Below, piece by piece: positions 13,861 to 20,495 of a DNA stretch of 64,000 nucleotides. Numbering within the stretch: the stretch's first letter is position 1; each line of letters starts with the position of its first letter. Made by a program: the position numbers and the translations under genes. The notes beneath the pieces are model-generated. The model was not told the DNA's origin. It did not search any database and saw nothing but the letters and a program-made list of their open reading frames with translations. The DNA lies in UHGV virus genome UHGV-0167633. One strand, given 5' to 3'. This DNA comes from a virus.

Positions 13861-13877
13861 AATGCTCTAATAGATTT
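13861..13877 (+). promoter_or_regulatory. C1-repressor-type operator upstream of immI (Op51-like)
   Basis: aATGCTCTAATAgATTT, 15/17 match to the ATTGCTCTAATAAATTT motif recurring in this window. Confidence 0.5.
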
Positions 13878-14191: not shown

Positions 14192-14413
14192 ATGGTTAAT
14201 GCCAATCCTTGCGCGCGCCCTGAATTTATCTGGCGTTTCTATTCCTGTAAAAAACACCACTATCACTTCGTTATCGCAGCAACAGAAGACGAAGCACGCT
14301 CTCAATTGCCTGATGGCCCCTGCATTTTTACTGCCCGTTTTTCTACTGACTCGCGCAATTCACTTAGTTACTGGAACCTCCCCTTCTCTGCCGACGTTCA
14401 GGGGGGTTTATGA
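14192..14413 (+). CDS. icd: Icd-like small protein upstream of ant
   Basis: 73-aa ORF with RBS GAGG, stop overlapping ant start (ATGA); size and position as P1 icd. Confidence 0.45.
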   Translation: MVNANPCARPEFIWRFYSCKKHHYHFVIAATEDEARSQLPDGPCIFTARFSTDSRNSLSYWNLPFSADVQGGL

Positions 14414-15801
14414 AAACACCTCTCGTCACCCGTAATGAAATAGCCGAAGCGATCGCCTTGCATACAATCTGTATGCCGACACGGGAGATCCCCGGCGCAA
14501 TTGCTAACTATTTCATGATAACCAGGCGTTTTTATACCCGAACAGATAAGGCTGTGATCAACAGGCTACTGATAGCCGAGATCAGGGATTATTTGATTGA
14601 ACAAGGACGTCTACGTTACGCAACAGTGGCAGCAGAAATGAGAAAGGAGGCACATAGAATGACCAGTAATAATTTGAATGTTAAAAAACCAGAATCTGTT
14701 GCTTCAGCTACGCCATCACCAGCTGTGAATGTTATCTCCAACACTGGAGACACAATCGACAGCCAGACGCTGTTAAAGATGGTTAATGAGGCGCGCAAGC
14801 TATGTGGGGAAAATGAGATCCGTAATAACGATTTTCTCAATAGAATTAAGGATGAACTTGATGGGGAATTTTACGAAACTTTCGTAAAATCCCATGGCAC
14901 AAGGGCCGGGCGCTCTTTTGAGGTCATAACCATGACCTACAAACAAGCCCTGCGCGTTGCTGCTCGCGAATCGAAAGCGGTCCGCCGTTCGCTACATACC
15001 ATGATTCAGTCATTGGAACCTATAAATGTAGAAAATCAGCCTGATGAAATTCCCGTTCTGGAATGGCAGGGAGTACGCGTCGTGACAACCGAGACTCTTG
15101 CTAGAGGGTATGGCACTACACCTATTCGTATTCAGCAGAACTACAATCGCAATGAAGAACGATTTGTAGAGGGTAAACACTTCTTTAAAATCAAAGGAGA
15201 TGAGATAAAAAGTTTGCGACTATCTTTTAGCGAGTTGCAAATTTCCCCCAAGACCAGATCCTTAATACTCTGGACCGAACGCGGAGCGGCACGCATGTCT
15301 AAGATCGTAGACACAGAGCAAGCGTGGGCATTCTTTGAAAAACTGGAAGACAGCTACTTCCGGCAAAAAGAACAGCAACCGGTCACAATCCCCCAAACAT
15401 TACCAGAAGCTCTACGCCTGGCTGCCGAGTTGGCAGAGCAGAAAATGCAGTTGGAACAACAGCTGGTGGCCGCAGCCCCTAAAGTAGATTTTGCCGACCG
15501 GGTATCAGTGGCTAATGGAATCCTGATCGGGAACTTTGCAAAGGTCGTTGGACTTAAGCAAAACGCCCTTTTCTCATGGTTGCGCCAGAACGGCATTCTC
15601 ATGGCTTTTGGTGCGCGCAAAAACGTACCGCGCCAGCAGTACATTAACGCCGGGTATTTCACGGTGAAAGAAGTGGTGCTGGATGATGAAAATGGCTACC
15701 AGATACGGCTGACGCCCCAATTAACGGGTAAAGGCCAGCAGTGGTTAACTCGCAAGCTACTTGATGCTGGCTTGTTAAAACCGGTGGCGTCCTTGTCTTA
15801 A
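14410..15801 (+). CDS. ant: antirepressor Ant (Bro-N/KilA-C type)
   Basis: 463-aa ORF; C-terminal KilA-C-like block (DFADRVSVANGILIGNFAKVVGLKQNALFSWLRQNGIL) shared with downstream kilA paralog. Confidence 0.75.
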   Translation: MKTPLVTRNEIAEAIALHTICMPTREIPGAIANYFMITRRFYTRTDKAVINRLLIAEIRDYLIEQGRLRYATVAAEMRKEAHRMTSNNLNVKKPESVASATPSPAVNVISNTGDTIDSQTLLKMVNEARKLCGENEIRNNDFLNRIKDELDGEFYETFVKSHGTRAGRSFEVITMTYKQALRVAARESKAVRRSLHTMIQSLEPINVENQPDEIPVLEWQGVRVVTTETLARGYGTTPIRIQQNYNRNEERFVEGKHFFKIKGDEIKSLRLSFSELQISPKTRSLILWTERGAARMSKIVDTEQAWAFFEKLEDSYFRQKEQQPVTIPQTLPEALRLAAELAEQKMQLEQQLVAAAPKVDFADRVSVANGILIGNFAKVVGLKQNALFSWLRQNGILMAFGARKNVPRQQYINAGYFTVKEVVLDDENGYQIRLTPQLTGKGQQWLTRKLLDAGLLKPVASLS

Positions 15802-16440: not shown

Positions 16441-17241
16441 ATGCAACAAACATTCAATGCAGATATGAATATATCAAACCTTCATCAAAATGTCGATCCT
16501 TCAACCACTCTGCCCGTTATTTGTGGTGTTGAAATTACGACCGACCGCGCTGGCCGTTACAACCTTAATGCTCTACACAGAGCGAGCGGACTCGGTGCCC
16601 ATAAAGCGCCAGCTCAATGGCTAAGAACGCTGTCAGCAAAACAGCTCATCGAAGAGCTTGAAAAAGAAACTATGCAGAATTGCATAGTTTCGTTCGAAGG
16701 TCGTGGCGGCGGCACTTTTGCCCATGAATTGCTCGCTGTGGAGTACGCAGGTTGGATTTCTCCCGCGTTTCGGCTGAAGGTAAACCAGACATTTATCGAC
16801 TATCGAGCCGGAAGATTACAACCAGCTATTCCGCAGAGTCTCCCTGAAGCTCTCCGTTTGGCTGCCGACCTGGCAGAGCAAAAGCAACGCCTGGAGCAAA
16901 AAATGCTTATGGATGCCCCTAAAGTCGAATTCGCCGAACGCGTTGCTACCGCCAGCGGGGTTCTAATCGGCAACTATGCCAAAGTGCTCGGCCTGGGCCA
17001 AAACTATCTCTTCACCTGGTTGCGTGATAACGGAATTCTGATCGCAACCGGTGAACGCAGGAACGTCCCCAAACAAGAATACATATCCCGTGGGTATTTC
17101 ACCCTTAAAGAAACCGTGATCGATACAAGCAACGGAAGCAGGATTTCTTTCACGACTCGTATAACCGGCAAAGGTCAGCAGTGGCTAATGAAGCGATTGC
17201 TTGATGCTGGTGTGCTGGTACCTGTCGCGGCAACGCGCTAA
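16441..17241 (+). CDS. kilA: KilA (KilA-C domain protein)
   Basis: 266-aa ORF (same length as P1 KilA); KilA-C block PKVEFAERVATASGVLIGNYAKVLGLGQNYLFTWLRDNGIL. Confidence 0.7.
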   Translation: MQQTFNADMNISNLHQNVDPSTTLPVICGVEITTDRAGRYNLNALHRASGLGAHKAPAQWLRTLSAKQLIEELEKETMQNCIVSFEGRGGGTFAHELLAVEYAGWISPAFRLKVNQTFIDYRAGRLQPAIPQSLPEALRLAADLAEQKQRLEQKMLMDAPKVEFAERVATASGVLIGNYAKVLGLGQNYLFTWLRDNGILIATGERRNVPKQEYISRGYFTLKETVIDTSNGSRISFTTRITGKGQQWLMKRLLDAGVLVPVAATR

Positions 17242-17270: not shown

Positions 17271-17780
17271 ATGCTGGCTAAAGTCACTTTCCTGAGCTGT
17301 ATAACGATGAGCGATTTTACTTTTTCTGGCTATGAATTGGCCTGCTTTGTAACACACTCCGGTCTATCCCGCAGCGCCGGGCATATCCTGTCGCAATGTG
17401 CAAATCTCGCGGCAACAACCAGTGAATACTTCATTCACAAGCCTCACCGCATGATCGCGGCAGAAACTGGTTATAGCCAATCAACCGTCGTTCGTGCATT
17501 CCGTGAAGCTGTAAACAAAGGAATCCTGTCGGTAGAGATTGTTATCGGCGATCACCGTGAACGCCGCGCTAACCTGTACCGGTTTACACCATCCTTTTTG
17601 GCCTTCGCACAACAAGCCAAAAATGCGCTGATTGAAAGCAAATTAAAGATCTCTTCAGCGGCAACCAAGGTTAAAGCTGTTCTCGCTAAGACATTGGCTT
17701 TATTTAATTTTTTATCCACACCCCCATGTCAAAATGATACCCCCTCTCCCTGTCAGGATGACGTGGCAATAAAGAATTAG
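17271..17780 (+). CDS. RepL-like lytic replication initiator (winged-helix)
   Basis: 169-aa ORF directly after kilA; HTH-like segment (SQSTVVRAFREAVNKGIL); start uncertain (alternative ATG at 17307). Confidence 0.4.
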   Translation: MLAKVTFLSCITMSDFTFSGYELACFVTHSGLSRSAGHILSQCANLAATTSEYFIHKPHRMIAAETGYSQSTVVRAFREAVNKGILSVEIVIGDHRERRANLYRFTPSFLAFAQQAKNALIESKLKISSAATKVKAVLAKTLALFNFLSTPPCQNDTPSPCQDDVAIKN

Positions 17781-17846
17781 AAGTCTCAATGTCGAAATAG
17801 AAAAAGATCAGTTTCCGGCGCTGCCGGAACGACCAAACTCAAAAAA

Positions 17847-18113
17847 TTGACTTCATGGATCGCTGGTGCAAAAGCAAAGGCCGACAATCTGCGGTTATCC
17901 AAAAAACGCGCTCAAAAACATGAGTTCCAGCAGAAAGTTGAGGCAGCGGCCCGGAAATATGCTTACCTGAAGAGCAAGCGTTCTCCTGATATTGGCGGGA
18001 TATCAAACTTCGATAATCTGCCGCATTGCATGACGGTAAACGAAGCTCTGGATATGGTCCTATCTACAAGAAAAGAAAAGGAATTTTATATTCCAACTGG
18101 TTTTCGCGGATGA
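17847..18113 (+). CDS. hypothetical protein
   Basis: 88-aa ORF; no motif recognised. Confidence 0.3.
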   Translation: MTSWIAGAKAKADNLRLSKKRAQKHEFQQKVEAAARKYAYLKSKRSPDIGGISNFDNLPHCMTVNEALDMVLSTRKEKEFYIPTGFRG

Positions 18114-18208
18114 TCGCGAATGATAGAATCTTTACGTGTATTTAACGCTCAATACACACTATTTTGTCACCAGTATTATTTTTAACGTTTTTATAGGTAA
18201 CTTTTTCC

Positions 18209-18724
18209 ATGAAAAAAGTAGTTTTAACGGCCCTTCTGGCATGTGCCTTGGGGGTTGCTGGGACTGCCTCCGCATATCAGCACACACTCTCCTTAGACTT
18301 TGCCCAAGGAAGCGCAACGGTTAAAGGCGGAGATATAAAAGATCCAAAAGGCGTGAATATTAAATATCGCTACGAAATGGATTCTACGTGGGGTGGATTA
18401 GCTTCGGTCACTTACGAAAAGTCAAACACAAACCTATGGAATGCCGCCAAAGCCAAGGTTGAGTATGCCTCATTTACTTTTGGTCCGTCATACAGATTCA
18501 ATGAATTAATGAGTGCATACGGCTTGGTGGGTTTAAGCCATGCGGATGCAACAGCAAAACTGAATGGACAGTCATATGCTGGCTTTGGAACCGATTTTGC
18601 TTATGGACTTGGGCTTCAATTTAACCCATCTCCGCAGTTTGCAGTTGATCTCTCGTATGAACGTTCTAAACCAGGTGATCTAAGCAATAGCATTTGGATG
18701 CTTGGTGTCGGTTACCGATTTTAA
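18209..18724 (+). CDS. Ail/Lom/PagC-family outer membrane beta-barrel protein
   Basis: 171-aa ORF with signal peptide (MKKVVLTALLACALGVAGTASA), alternating-hydrophobic beta strands, C-terminal GYRF; followed by hairpin CCCTCTGC/GCAGAGGG. Confidence 0.8.
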   Translation: MKKVVLTALLACALGVAGTASAYQHTLSLDFAQGSATVKGGDIKDPKGVNIKYRYEMDSTWGGLASVTYEKSNTNLWNAAKAKVEYASFTFGPSYRFNELMSAYGLVGLSHADATAKLNGQSYAGFGTDFAYGLGLQFNPSPQFAVDLSYERSKPGDLSNSIWMLGVGYRF

Positions 18725-18771
18725 CTATTTAGTCCCTCTGCCCTACGCAGAGGGATTTATACTTTGCTCTG

Positions 18772-19035
18772 GTGATATTCGTTATGTTCATTGAGACTAA
18801 CGCTATGACTATCCTGGTATCTATTCCCATCTATATACTAATTGGTGGACTGATATACGCATTAAGTCGATATATTTTGCGAGCTAATGCAGAAATGGCC
18901 TGGTGGGATCGTTTTTGGATAATGATTTTTTTTGGCATATTCTGGCCATTAGGGCTCATGTTTGTTGCAACATTTCTTCTGATGTGGATATTCACCCTTC
19001 CAGGTGATTTCTATAGAAAAAAAACCAGACATTGA
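18772..19035 (+). CDS. small inner-membrane protein
   Basis: 87-aa ORF with two or three predicted TM helices; AT-rich. Confidence 0.4.
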   Translation: MIFVMFIETNAMTILVSIPIYILIGGLIYALSRYILRANAEMAWWDRFWIMIFFGIFWPLGLMFVATFLLMWIFTLPGDFYRKKTRH

Positions 19036-19217
19036 TACACCCGCTGCGGTGTGCTTGGGGCTATCAGCTTCAGGTATTACCCGAAAAGCAGATAGAAGAA
19101 AGCCCCAGTAAACATTATGCGTCCCGCACAACGCTTAACATTAACCGGGGCCATACCTATGCTTAGCGTACTTAGATTAATCCTCTCCTCTGTCAAGGAG
19201 CAAGGAATTTTTTACTG

Positions 19218-19850
19218 CTATGCCGCCTTTCCAGTTATGGATTCTGCGACAAGAACAACCCCATGCTTACTTCGATCCGGATGTTCACTCCATATCTCGG
19301 ATTCAGGAATACTTTCCCCGTCATAGCAAACACGTTCGCCGTCAAACGGGTAATACTGAGCGGCATCGGTGTCGAGGATAAACACTTTTAGCTCGGATGA
19401 GCGACGGGCGATGTGTTGCCAAAGAGCTTTTCCACCTTCGTATTGCTCATTATCACTGAGCAAAACAACACCAGCTTTTGAGGCTACGGTTTCGTAAACA
19501 AAAGTGGCTAAACCGACATCCCGGACGATTCCATCAACCACGATACCTTCAATCTGGGCAACATCGCTATCCTCCCAGAACTTCCTTACCAGTACGCCTT
19601 CAAGCTGCGGGCGACGTTGAAGTTCAAGAGTAGCGACAACCTTATGCCGCATATCACCATCGATAACAGAAGGCGCAGCCTCTATTACAGCTGCAAATGG
19701 GGTTTTGGAATCCCATATAACCTGGTAAAGCACACCCTGGATGGTAACGCCGTCCAGGATCGAAAATCGACGAGCGACAGTACCCGGGGAGTACGACATT
19801 GGAATCACAGCCATTTTAGAGTCCCCCTTTAACAGTACAGGCACAAACAT
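19218..19850 (-). CDS. hypothetical protein (own promoter region and upstream terminator)
   Basis: 210-aa ORF (likely start at MAVIPMSY); preceded by AT-rich region and bidirectional hairpin. Confidence 0.4.
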   Translation of the reverse strand: MFVPVLLKGDSKMAVIPMSYSPGTVARRFSILDGVTIQGVLYQVIWDSKTPFAAVIEAAPSVIDGDMRHKVVATLELQRRPQLEGVLVRKFWEDSDVAQIEGIVVDGIVRDVGLATFVYETVASKAGVVLLSDNEQYEGGKALWQHIARRSSELKVFILDTDAAQYYPFDGERVCYDGESIPESEIWSEHPDRSKHGVVLVAESITGKAA

Positions 19851-19941
19851 CTACCTCAATAATTGTAGTTTATTAGAACATTAATAATCTAACATAAAAC
19901 TCCAGACAATGTTATCGATGCATTTTTATATAAAAAGGTTA

Positions 19942-19967
19942 TAAAAAAAGCTCCCGAAGGAGCTTTA
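19942..19967 (-). terminator. rho-independent terminator (bidirectional hairpin)
   Basis: AGCTCC-CGAA-GGAGCT flanked by A7 upstream and T3 downstream on plus strand. Confidence 0.5.
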
Positions 19968-19985
19968 AAATACAAGGGATGACTC

Positions 19986-20495
19986 TTAATCCCACTCAAT
20001 CCAGTTGTAGACGATACGAAGTGACGGGCGCACAGCGGCAGTCACATCTTCGGTACTAAAGTCGATTGCATCACTGTAGATTTTGCAGTCCAACATTTCA
20101 ATTGTTGTAGCAGCTTTTGTCACAGCGTTAACCCCGGAAGATTTGGATTCAGGGGTAGCAGCCATCGTGATATCAACATAGTCCTTCGCCGCAATGCGAT
20201 CTTTAATGAACTGAAGAATATCGCCTTCGATAGTCTCCACGCACTGGACCTGGACTTCCCCAGAGTTTCGAATTGGACCGTGCTGGTTGAACTTCACACC
20301 ATTCGGACCATAGTCCTCCACATCCTCGCGGGTCATTTCAGGAATTTGCGACGTGCGAACCAGTACGCTGATATCTTCATGGCCTGCAAAAGTGAGCTGG
20401 AATTCAGAAGATACCAGTCGTTCGCCTTTGGCCGCGTTGGCAGTATAGCGGCCCTTAATAAATTTACGGTTTCCCTTAGTGTTATTGTGCCCCAT
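19986..20495 (-). CDS. virion structural protein (tail tube or baseplate-like)
   Basis: 169-aa ORF in late operon downstream of sheath-like gene. Confidence 0.4.
   Translation of the reverse strand: MGHNNTKGNRKFIKGRYTANAAKGERLVSSEFQLTFAGHEDISVLVRTSQIPEMTREDVEDYGPNGVKFNQHGPIRNSGEVQVQCVETIEGDILQFIKDRIAAKDYVDITMAATPESKSSGVNAVTKAATTIEMLDCKIYSDAIDFSTEDVTAAVRPSLRIVYNWIEWD

Follow-up and report, generated by a model that had tools for sequence, protein, structure and literature searches.

The window analysed here is a 64,000-nucleotide stretch of one strand of a virus genome, and the region 18114–19985 within it contains three open reading frames: 18209–18724 on the plus strand (171 aa), 18772–19035 on the plus strand (87 aa), and 19218–19850 on the minus strand (210 aa). 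These positions agree exactly with those of the initial annotation, and the placement described there, between a kilA/RepL-like unit and virion genes, likewise holds, with kilA and repL on the left and bplB, pmgG, 21, and 22 on the right. The features of the region and its flanks are as follows.

16441–17241, kilA, left flank
17271–18113, plus strand, repL, left flank; its last ~60 nt (from ~18050) are part of the barrel-type variant segment
18050–18925, no strand assigned, barrel-type replacement segment, which differs from other P1-like backbones
18063–18092, plus strand, candidate promoter of the barrel gene, TCTACA-18-TATATT
18122–18130, plus strand, candidate extended -10 element of the barrel gene, TGATAGAAT, read directly off the sequence
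18209–18724, plus strand, predicted Ail/OmpX/Lom-family outer-membrane β-barrel, 171-aa precursor, 8 strands
18731–18757, plus strand, hairpin 3′ of the barrel gene, 11-bp stem with 6 G-C pairs and a T-containing tail
18784–19035, plus strand, small hydrophobic membrane protein of 83 aa when begun at ATG (87 aa if the frame is extended to GTG 18772), phrog_3772
19049–19222, plus strand, hok/sok leader relic, Rfam RF01794
19218–19814, minus strand, divergent protein with a predicted GNAT (acyl-CoA N-acyltransferase-like) fold, 198 aa (210 aa if the frame is extended to ATG 19850), phrog_7522
19947–19966, minus strand, hairpin, intrinsic terminator of the bplB late transcript
19986–20495, minus strand, bplB, right flank, conserved backbone; pmgG, 21, and 22 also lie there on the minus strand, from 19986 onward

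In all probability, the region is the repL–bplB slot of a P1-like (SJ46-type) phage-plasmid and holds three independent accessory modules. Its content is an ordinary accessory-gene cassette that is already annotated in public records. In the accessible portion of Wang et al. 2022 (PMC9603915), the same repL–bplB locus (rlfA–rlfB–pmgF) appears as variable region 5/E, low in GC and counted among eight such highly variable stretches in P1-like phage-plasmids. That portion of the paper scores P1 genes as present or absent, whereas the alternative cargos (barrel, 81–83-aa membrane protein, hokD, and GNAT-fold protein) are not catalogued there. At this position P1 carries rlfA–rlfB–pmgF and lacks the barrel gene; most relatives carry an 81-aa gene and hokD, others an 81-aa gene and the 198-aa gene, and RCS47 an IS605-family orfB and the 198-aa gene.

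The part of the slot that is particular to barrel-carrying plasmids can be delimited by sliding identity against the other backbones, which falls from at least 0.9 to below 0.55 at ~18050 and is back to at least 0.8 at ~18922. In the replaced segment lie the barrel gene and its hairpin, flanked by diverged sequence of the repL 3′ end and of the small membrane-protein gene (5′ half). Homologous exchange with a P1-like relative that had diverged probably brought in the barrel gene, and the breakpoints fall within the repL 3′ end (~18050) and within the small membrane-protein gene (~18925).

Profile matches and a structure model indicate that the 171-aa ORF encodes a true 8-stranded barrel of the Ail/Lom/OmpX family. 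The ORF matches Pfam Ail_Lom (PF06316; 1.3e-22, 81 bits against a cutoff of 23), OMP_b-brl (PF13505; 87 bits against a cutoff of 28.7), and phrog_108 ‘Lom’ (2.6e-47), and its sequence matches in the PDB are Yersinia pestis Ail (1.6e-29), OmpX (5e-21), and λ Lom (4e-13). The AlphaFold model (pLDDT 87) has a signal helix and eight long strands. In Foldseek, the best structural match of this model is Ail (3QRA; TM-score 0.80/0.90, 41% identity), and OmpX (1QJ9) scores 0.78/0.89 with 35% identity. The gene had been called an Ail/Lom/PagC-type β-barrel in the initial annotation, with the reservation that a barrel prediction might be missing; eight strands are predicted, and alignment to the family gives identities of 41% to Ail, 35–36% to OmpX, and ~29% to λ Lom. 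The signal peptide is MKKVVLTALLACALGVAGTASA, followed by YQ, with an A-x-A motif ahead of the predicted cut between ASA and Y; in the model, it forms a helix (residues 2–17) outside the barrel. The C terminus, GVGYRF, has the form of an aromatic β-signal for BAM (Y-x-F), and residues G166, G168, Y169, and F171 are invariant among 34 homologues.

Within the family, the protein can be compared with several characterized members. It shares with Ail of Y. pestis and Y. enterocolitica (3QRA/3QRC; PF06316) the 8-stranded fold and a conserved transmembrane core that includes the C-terminal GxGYRF, whereas its extracellular loops 2 and 3 are shorter and show no sequence relation to those of Ail, and the gene resides on a phage-plasmid rather than on a chromosome as does that of Ail. 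The resemblance to Escherichia coli OmpX (1QJ8/1QJ9; NF006917) extends to the precursor length of 171 aa, the short loops, and an end-to-end alignment to the OmpX model; however, the score against the equivalog NF006917 is 116.4 bits, under the cutoff of 176, which rules out an OmpX orthologue, and the barrel gene belongs to the accessory content of a mobile element. The Lom and Lom/Ail proteins of λ and Stx phages (phrog_108) are likewise phage-borne, belong to the same family, and occupy a non-essential position, but identity to them is ~29–32% (the best phage Lom outside SJ46 reaches 32%), and they are roughly 199–206 aa in length (the λ Lom PDB chain has 206 residues) compared with 171 aa here, so the loops of the present protein are shorter. 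Their context is a lambdoid genome instead of the repL–bplB slot. An orthologue of λ Lom was rejected on the basis of 28.7% identity over 79% of the query together with the different genomic context. The nearest relatives outside P1-like elements are Ail/Lom proteins of Arsenophonus and Photorhabdus (46–40% identity), some of which are named ‘attachment protein’. In RefSeq the gene is labelled ‘Lom outer membrane protein’ (phage SJ46) and “Ail/Lom family”, and it is not mentioned in the accessible parts of the SJ46 paper and of comparative papers on P1-like elements.

The barrel gene is found in ~35 of 490–680 P1-like plasmids in PLSDB (~5%) and in 9 of 5,426 complete E. coli genomes (0.17%). 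The initial annotation had allowed that it might be present in all P1 backbones; it is absent from P1, P7, RCS47, and ~95% of P1-like plasmids. The best 30 full-length PLSDB carriers include 22 from Escherichia albertii and 4 from Salmonella, as well as some from E. coli, and across carriers from these three taxa the ORF is intact and 95–100% conserved, with signal peptide and β-signal kept. For several of these best 30 carriers, the source was a farm animal, meat, or a wild bird.

The surroundings of the barrel gene are consistent with a transcription unit of its own. The spacer upstream is AT-rich (30.5% GC), and no C1 operator was found upstream of the gene within 3 mismatches; ten C1-operator-like sites occur in the window, none of them in 17800–20000. 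In P1, by contrast, Op55 directly follows repL. A hairpin belonging to the gene had been proposed previously, and one with an 11-bp stem is present at 18731–18757, although its tail is T-rich to a moderate degree only. The candidate promoter elements are weak matches to the consensus, and the promoter scan returned 3 sites compared with 5.6 expected by chance. Base composition was considered as a mark of foreign origin and is uninformative (44.6% GC for the gene and a window mean of 47.4%). The AT-rich spacer, the hairpin, and the lack of a C1 operator support a moron-like anatomy and, therefore, the barrel gene is most likely an autonomous moron, one that we infer from these sequence features to be transcribed in the plasmid-prophage state. 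Read-through from kilA–repL could provide additional expression during lytic growth.

The second ORF encodes the AT-rich 87-aa membrane protein reported initially (37% GC, two hydrophobic segments), but its likely start is ATG 18784, as in the SJ46 annotation, which gives 83 aa. Pfam and NCBIfam searches with the small protein returned nothing meaningful (the one match, to the SA1362 family, was sub-threshold, 16.5 bits where the cutoff is 42), and the homologue search yielded only 8 clusters and no functional lead; the named clusters are from E. albertii plasmids, phage SJ46, and E. coli. Its family, phrog_3772, is found in P1-like elements only, and the protein may be regarded as an 83-aa resident of the slot.

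The third gene is oppositely oriented, as described initially for the 210-aa frame at 19218–19850, although the likely start at ATG 19814, which is the RefSeq start and is preceded by the Shine-Dalgarno sequence AAAGGGGG, gives 198 aa. Pfam and NCBIfam searches gave no match to this protein, Acetyltransf_1 was touched weakly by 6 of 101 family members (best E = 6e-4), and a PDB sequence search produced chance-level matches only. A family profile searched against the PDB reached no more than E = 0.018, to an arylalkylamine N-acetyltransferase of the GNAT superfamily, and it took structure prediction to assign the protein a GNAT fold. The protein has an R98-x-x-G101-x-A103 motif and conserved S120, D121, Q124, and W132, and it differs from the GNAT superfamily in a C-terminal extension in which Y164 and W175 are conserved. 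The gene is a module independent of the barrel gene: it occurs in 125 plasmids, at most ~35 of which carry the barrel gene, and it is found elsewhere, unaccompanied by the other two genes, next to the AlpA and DUF3987 genes of apparent P4-like satellites and next to bacteriocin-like clusters. A 545-aa protein encoded next to one GNAT homologue had no match in PADLOC, nor did any of the three slot proteins.

The initial annotation had the third gene bounded by a bidirectional terminator. A hairpin does exist at 19947–19966, but it scores as a terminator on the minus strand only and stands upstream of the minus-strand gene, where it terminates bplB; in hok-type plasmids, the same hairpin stands after hokD. 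The other boundary is not a terminator. RF01794 aligns to 19049–19222 over its full 157-nt model with 62.3 bits (gathering score 59; E = 7e-13), and the sequence shares ~90% identity over 19002–19160 (0.83–0.93 per 40-nt block) with the leader in the intact hokD locus that occupies the same position in sister plasmids. This segment is best described, from its sequence, as a decayed hok/sok leader, a relic rather than a working system. The leader alignment exceeds the gathering score, as it does in the intact hok/sok locus (hokD/mokW of P1-like plasmids), but the score is about half of the 114.9 bits obtained for the intact locus of sister plasmid L005, the putative hok promoter -10 reads TACACC and not TACAAT, and homology to the hokD locus stops at ~19182. 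Downstream of the leader no hok ORF is present, and the opposite-strand 198-aa gene fills the site, beginning at the hok start. The GNAT-fold gene probably took the place of the hok toxin gene in an ancestral hok/sok locus and left the leader to decay. A lesser, unlikely possibility is continued production of a Sok-like RNA from this remnant, which would shield the host from being killed by hok-carrying, incompatible P1-like plasmids, an anti-addiction role. Other Rfam matches in the region were sub-threshold and are put down to chance, namely STnc130 (33.9 bits against 55; the match is the terminator hairpin only), SAM-III (22.7 against 45), and Six3os1 (19 against 40).

Beyond the family, fold, anatomy, distribution, and recombination boundaries described above, the likely route of the barrel protein can be outlined. 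The precursor would be exported by Sec with the signal peptide removed after ASA, BAM would insert the 8-stranded barrel by means of the C-terminal GVGYRF, and the inserted barrel would expose four short loops of OmpX length, a new surface protein added to the lysogen. A phenotype in adhesion or serum resistance, or in the exclusion of phages, may follow. Classical lysogenic conversion, in which the protein would confer complement resistance or bind host cells or the extracellular matrix, in the manner of Ail, Rck, PagC, or λ Lom, and would thereby benefit E. albertii, Salmonella, and similar enteric hosts, is a plausible but tentative reading that draws on family-level analogy. Ail as the best solved-structure match, the ‘attachment protein’ relatives, and the predominance of E. 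albertii and Salmonella among the best 30 full-length carriers favor it. However, the loops that carry function in Ail and Rck (in Ail, loops 2 and 3, with adhesion and serum resistance) are as short here as those of OmpX and not conserved; in addition, the score against the Rck equivalog is 79 bits (cutoff 258), and the accessible SJ46 text is silent on the gene. OmpX is not known to have a firmly established virulence role. An ompX-deletion study in extraintestinal pathogenic E. coli is on record (PMC5053926). It is also possible, if somewhat doubtful, that the barrel serves the phage itself and not host virulence and, lying amid LPS, keeps incoming phages from adsorbing, be it for superinfection exclusion or to protect kin during lysis; the targets would be phages dependent on the LPS core, P1 included. 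The receptor of the carrier phage, as established for P1, is the LPS core, and the OmpX-sized, short-looped protein is encoded beside other lysogeny-expressed cargo. In a 2025 preprint (10.1101/2025.02.28.640651), metagenome-derived 8-stranded barrels of the OmpX/OmpA-like kind prevented T7 from adsorbing, and λ-vir was strongly blocked when λ Lom was expressed, but no protection came from E. coli OmpX itself, and λ Lom did not exclude λ-vir when present at the levels of a lysogen. The ~29% identity to λ Lom and the lack of a PADLOC match for the barrel protein also argue against this role. P1, moreover, already possesses the sim superimmunity system. The more specific proposal that the OmpX-sized barrel is a phage-borne adsorption shield, which masks the LPS core and excludes P1-type and other LPS-core-dependent phages, is unlikely, whether the protein is thought of as produced by the P1-like prophage or in large amounts towards the end of infection.

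The gene could, alternatively, encode a functional protein with no selectable phenotype and owe its persistence only to the tolerance of the slot for cargo. Its low prevalence is compatible with such neutral hitch-hiking, as is the frequent absence of a phenotype upon deletion of OmpX-like proteins, but the intact reading frame, its conservation across three host taxa, and the retained signal peptide and β-signal render this account improbable. That the three genes form one functional unit, as the initial annotation implies, in which the barrel works with an inner-membrane protein dedicated to it and with an enzyme or regulator, is highly improbable. They are adjacent in all ~35 barrel-carrying plasmids, and the 5′ half of the small gene, unlike the rest of it, accompanies the barrel gene and is confined to the barrel-type segment. 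Against this stand ~455 barrel-less plasmids that match the 3′ part of the small gene, with an intact 81-aa version in 3 of the 3 inspected, a distribution that also removes the small protein from the role of companion to Lom given to it in the initial annotation. The wider occurrence of the 198-aa gene, the hairpin between the barrel gene and the small gene, and the position of the third gene on the opposite strand behind the hok/sok relic point in the same direction, and a single operon or functional unit is ruled out largely by distribution.

Conversion of the host surface by an autonomously transcribed moron would, if the barrel is expressed in lysogens, mean that a transmissible phage-plasmid alters the surface of enteric carriers, which could affect serum resistance, adhesion, or phage susceptibility. 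The gene also provides a second, independent phage lineage in which Lom-type barrels can be tested as antiphage or exclusion proteins; were the shield reading true, the antiphage activity of λ Lom and OmpX-like barrels would extend to phage-plasmids. Both the gene family and morons as a concept are already established, as is the variability of the P1 slot, and the barrel gene is publicly annotated; the gain is therefore incremental. More useful are the by-products: a modular map of the slot, the hok/sok relic, and a predicted GNAT fold for a widespread ‘hypothetical’ protein. In the left flank, repL has an in-frame TAG at 17778–17780, within a patch of 8 substitutions in 23 bp.

The initial annotation placed three genes at 18114–19985, and both an ORF listing and direct reading of the sequence agree with its coordinates. 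The features of the region and its edges are as follows:

18063–18092, + strand: candidate promoter TCTACA-18-TATATT from a promoter scan, whose matches are as common in shuffled sequence
18122–18130, + strand: candidate extended −10 element, TGATAGAAT, read directly from the sequence
18209–18724, + strand: outer-membrane β-barrel ORF, 171 aa
18772–19035, + strand: small membrane-protein ORF, 87 aa from a GTG or 83 aa from the ATG at 18784
19049–19222, + strand: hok/sok leader relic, matching the whole Rfam sok model RF01794 at 62.3 bits (gathering score 59)
19218–19850, − strand: opposite-strand ORF, 210 aa from the first ATG or 198 aa from the ATG at 19814
19947–19966, − strand: terminator hairpin, scoring as a terminator on this strand only

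The left neighbors are an antirepressor-like gene, kilA (KilA-N and ANT domains), and repL, and the right neighbors, all on the − strand, are bplB, pmgG, gene 21, and the sheath gene 22. Judged by these flanking P1-type genes, the window is a P1-like phage-plasmid. Over positions 17800–20000, its identity is 99.8% with the E. coli plasmid pRHB25-C13_2 (CP057476.1) and 97.1% with Salmonella phage SJ46.

In terms of family, the 171-aa product scores 81 bits against Pfam Ail_Lom (cutoff 23), 87 bits against Pfam OMP_b-brl, and 2.6e-47 against PHROG 108, “Lom outer membrane protein”; the top match in a PDB sequence search is Yersinia pestis Ail (1.6e-29), followed by OmpX (5e-21) and lambda Lom (4e-13). 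The AlphaFold model (34 homologues, pLDDT 87) has eight long β-strands preceded by a helix at the N terminus, the signal peptide MKKVVLTALLACALGVAGTASA|Y; Foldseek superimposes the model on Ail at 41% identity (3QRA; TM-score 0.80/0.90) and on OmpX at 35% (1QJ9). The C-terminal β-signal, GVGYRF, is invariant or nearly so across the family alignment. Family, fold, signal peptide, and β-signal are thereby established, and the earlier claim of an Ail/Lom-type β-barrel is borne out. The NCBIfam OmpX model aligns end to end at 116 bits versus a cutoff of 176, and the Rck model reaches 79 bits versus 258. Its closest relatives beyond P1-like elements are Ail/Lom or “attachment” proteins of Arsenophonus and Photorhabdus at 46–40% identity, whereas phage Lom proteins are only 28–32% identical. 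Because the OmpX and Rck scores fall below cutoff and identities are low, the barrel protein is a distinct, uncharacterized branch of a well-known family and, by sequence, no orthologue of Lom, OmpX, Ail, or Rck.

The slot between repL and bplB varies among P1-like elements. Reference P1 carries rlfA-rlfB-pmgF, with the C1 operator Op55 immediately after repL; two of three inspected plasmids that lack the barrel gene carry an 81-aa membrane protein and hokD; the other carries the 81-aa protein and the 198-aa protein; and RCS47 carries an IS605-family orfB and the 198-aa protein. A “MokW” label under the match suggests that the Punavirus P1 record MH422554 has the same 81-aa plus hokD slot. Among 680 PLSDB records matching any part of 17800–20000, 490 match the small gene's 3′ part plus the leader that follows it, 125 have the 198-aa gene, and only 35 have the barrel gene. 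The best 30 full-length PLSDB matches come from E. albertii (22), Salmonella (4), and E. coli (4), and only 9 of 5,426 complete E. coli genomes carry the gene: on seven plasmids (six of 94–115 kb, one of 168.5 kb) and in two ST2747 chromosome records. Its accessory status is thus established, and since the product has a barrel and the gene is not in all P1 backbones, the core of the initial annotation stands. Wang et al. 2022 (PMC9603915) count rlfA-rlfB-pmgF among eight regions that are highly variable in P1-like phage-plasmids. The barrel gene is already named “Lom outer membrane protein” in the RefSeq SJ46 record and “Ail/Lom family outer membrane beta-barrel protein” by PGAP in plasmid copies; it goes unmentioned in the SJ46 paper. 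The cassette is ordinary cargo of a published hypervariable region, annotated in public records, and the barrel gene is a new, uncharacterized member of a known family.

In the two ST2747 records (NZ_CP007392.1 and NZ_CP007393.1, at ~2.226 Mb), the order kilA-repL-barrel-GNAT-bplB lies in the chromosome, with 100% identity over the barrel gene; the arrangement reflects either a P1-like element that has integrated or a join introduced in assembly.

Sliding identity of the window against P1, RCS47, and two sister plasmids delimits a barrel-specific segment from about 18050, within the final ~20 codons of repL, to about 18925, at about codon 47 of the small membrane-protein gene, with both flanks near-identical to other backbones. 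Because both ends of the segment are homologous to other backbones yet diverged, it was presumably exchanged by homologous recombination with a P1-like relative, itself diverged, in which repL, the barrel gene, and the small gene were already together, rather than inserted de novo. A 95-bp spacer of 30.5% GC precedes the barrel gene, and its own hairpin (11-bp stem), as had been described, follows the stop codon. Consensus promoter matches are no commoner in the region than in shuffled sequence. Scanning the window for the C1 operator consensus ATTGCTCTAATAAATTT with up to three mismatches gave ten sites (0.37 expected by chance), one upstream of kilA and none in 17800–20000. Taken together, the spacer, candidate promoters, hairpin, and lack of a C1 site in this interval fit an autonomous, non-C1-repressed unit, i.e., a putative moron.

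The operator-like sites lie at 13861, 16355 (the kilA operator), 32430, 35952/35963 (an overlapping inverted pair), 46178, 49802/49851, 51943, and 61530; Op55 of P1 has no counterpart in the window.

The barrel precursor would be exported by Sec and then inserted by BAM, which would expose four short loops on the lysogen surface. Adhesion or complement resistance of the Ail/Rck/Lom kind is a possible, if tentative, role, and the classical one for this family, favored by kinship with Ail and by carriage in enteric bacteria; however, the loops are not conserved, are the shortest in the family alignment, as short as in OmpX, and share no sequence relationship with those of Ail. A newer, competing reading, likewise tentative, is a role in blocking adsorption or excluding superinfecting phage; P1 adsorbs to the LPS core, so an adsorption shield is conceivable. 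A 2025 preprint (10.1101/2025.02.28.640651) reports that T7 adsorption is blocked by OmpX/OmpA-like barrels and that lambda Lom, when expressed, blocks lambda-vir; in that study, however, OmpX itself had no activity, and Lom made at the level found in lysogens did not exclude lambda-vir. That the gene is a neutral hitch-hiker seems improbable.

The small protein, described initially as a companion of the barrel, is not specific to it: the 3′ part of its gene also has matches in ~455 PLSDB plasmids that lack the barrel gene, and all three inspected plasmids of this kind encode an intact 81-aa version (L004–L006, 2867–3112). The 83-aa protein (phrog_3772; gene 37% GC) has two hydrophobic segments, at about residues 8–28 and 44–75. 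It is 47% identical overall to the 81-aa version, the C-terminal halves being nearly identical and the N-terminal halves diverged. A search of 5.8 billion proteins returned only eight clusters, the named ones from E. albertii plasmids, phage SJ46, and E. coli, and every homologue found was in a P1-like element. The N-terminal half exists in two diverged versions; the gene lies directly downstream of repL in the inspected P1-like plasmids and is absent from reference P1.

The terminator architecture of the initial annotation also holds only in part. On the small-gene side, the stretch concerned is the RF01794 match, and the intact hokD locus that the hok-type plasmid pPK5086-95kb has at this position scores 114.9 bits on that model. 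Homology of the window to the hok locus stops at about 19182, no hok ORF exists, and the putative hok promoter −10 reads TACACC in the window versus TACAAT, so that the locus is a decaying hok/sok relic. A Sok-like RNA, if this orphan leader still yields one, could act as an anti-addiction factor against hok-type P1 plasmids. The hairpin at 19947–19966 terminates the bplB transcript and is positioned upstream of the 198-aa gene; its counterpart in hok-type plasmids follows hokD. The modules are thus shown to be independent of one another. The initial annotation is correct in the main: its reading of the barrel gene as accessory and moron-like stands, while the companion and part of the terminator architecture do not.

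The opposite-strand gene starts exactly at the expected position of the hok ATG, where a 53-aa antisense ORF (19220–19381) also begins.

RefSeq starts the opposite-strand gene at the ATG at 19814, behind a AAAGGGGG Shine-Dalgarno sequence. The 198-aa protein has no match in Pfam, NCBIfam, or PADLOC; an exhaustive HMMER search gave 268 clusters at 50% identity, and the 150 best hits listed are about 200 aa long. In its AlphaFold model (pLDDT 90.9, 101 homologues in the alignment), R98-x-x-G101-x-A103 occupies the loop after strand 84–93, the site of GNAT motif A; S120 and W132 are invariant in the family, and Q87, Y107, D121, Q124, Y164, and W175 are nearly so. The predicted model and the motif-A-like residues identify it as a divergent GNAT-fold protein, probably an acyl-CoA-dependent acyltransferase. 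The gene for an 88%-identical E. coli homologue (L007–L010, 6001–8321) is convergent with one for a 545-aa protein of no matched family, followed by AlpA and DUF3987 genes, an arrangement that suggests a P4-like satellite and adjoins proline-biosynthesis genes in three of four places and P2-type tail genes in the fourth. A 70% homologue (L011, 6001–6660) adjoins a bacteriocin-like cluster of a C39-peptidase ABC exporter and a glycosyltransferase. These contexts hint at a defense or immunity role.

Upstream of kilA, the antirepressor-like gene (14410–15801, + strand) encodes 463 aa with ORF6N and KilAC/ANT domains, and the gene at this position measures 1035–1047 nt (about 344–348 aa) in P1, RCS47, and SJ46; it is a further variable module of the immunity region. 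In repL (17271–18113), an in-frame TAG at 17778–17780 replaces the AAG of SJ46, RCS47, P1, CP057476, and ST2747. It lies within a tight patch of eight substitutions in 23 bp (17778–17800, AAGAAGTCACAAGTTAAAAAAAC to TAGAAGTCTCAATGTCGAAATAG), five of them at adenines, and the remainder of repL differs from CP057476 by a single base. The patch could stem from a sequencing or assembly artifact or from local gene conversion, or repL could truly be knocked out; in the P1 record, the whole repL span is annotated as an oriL-containing region.
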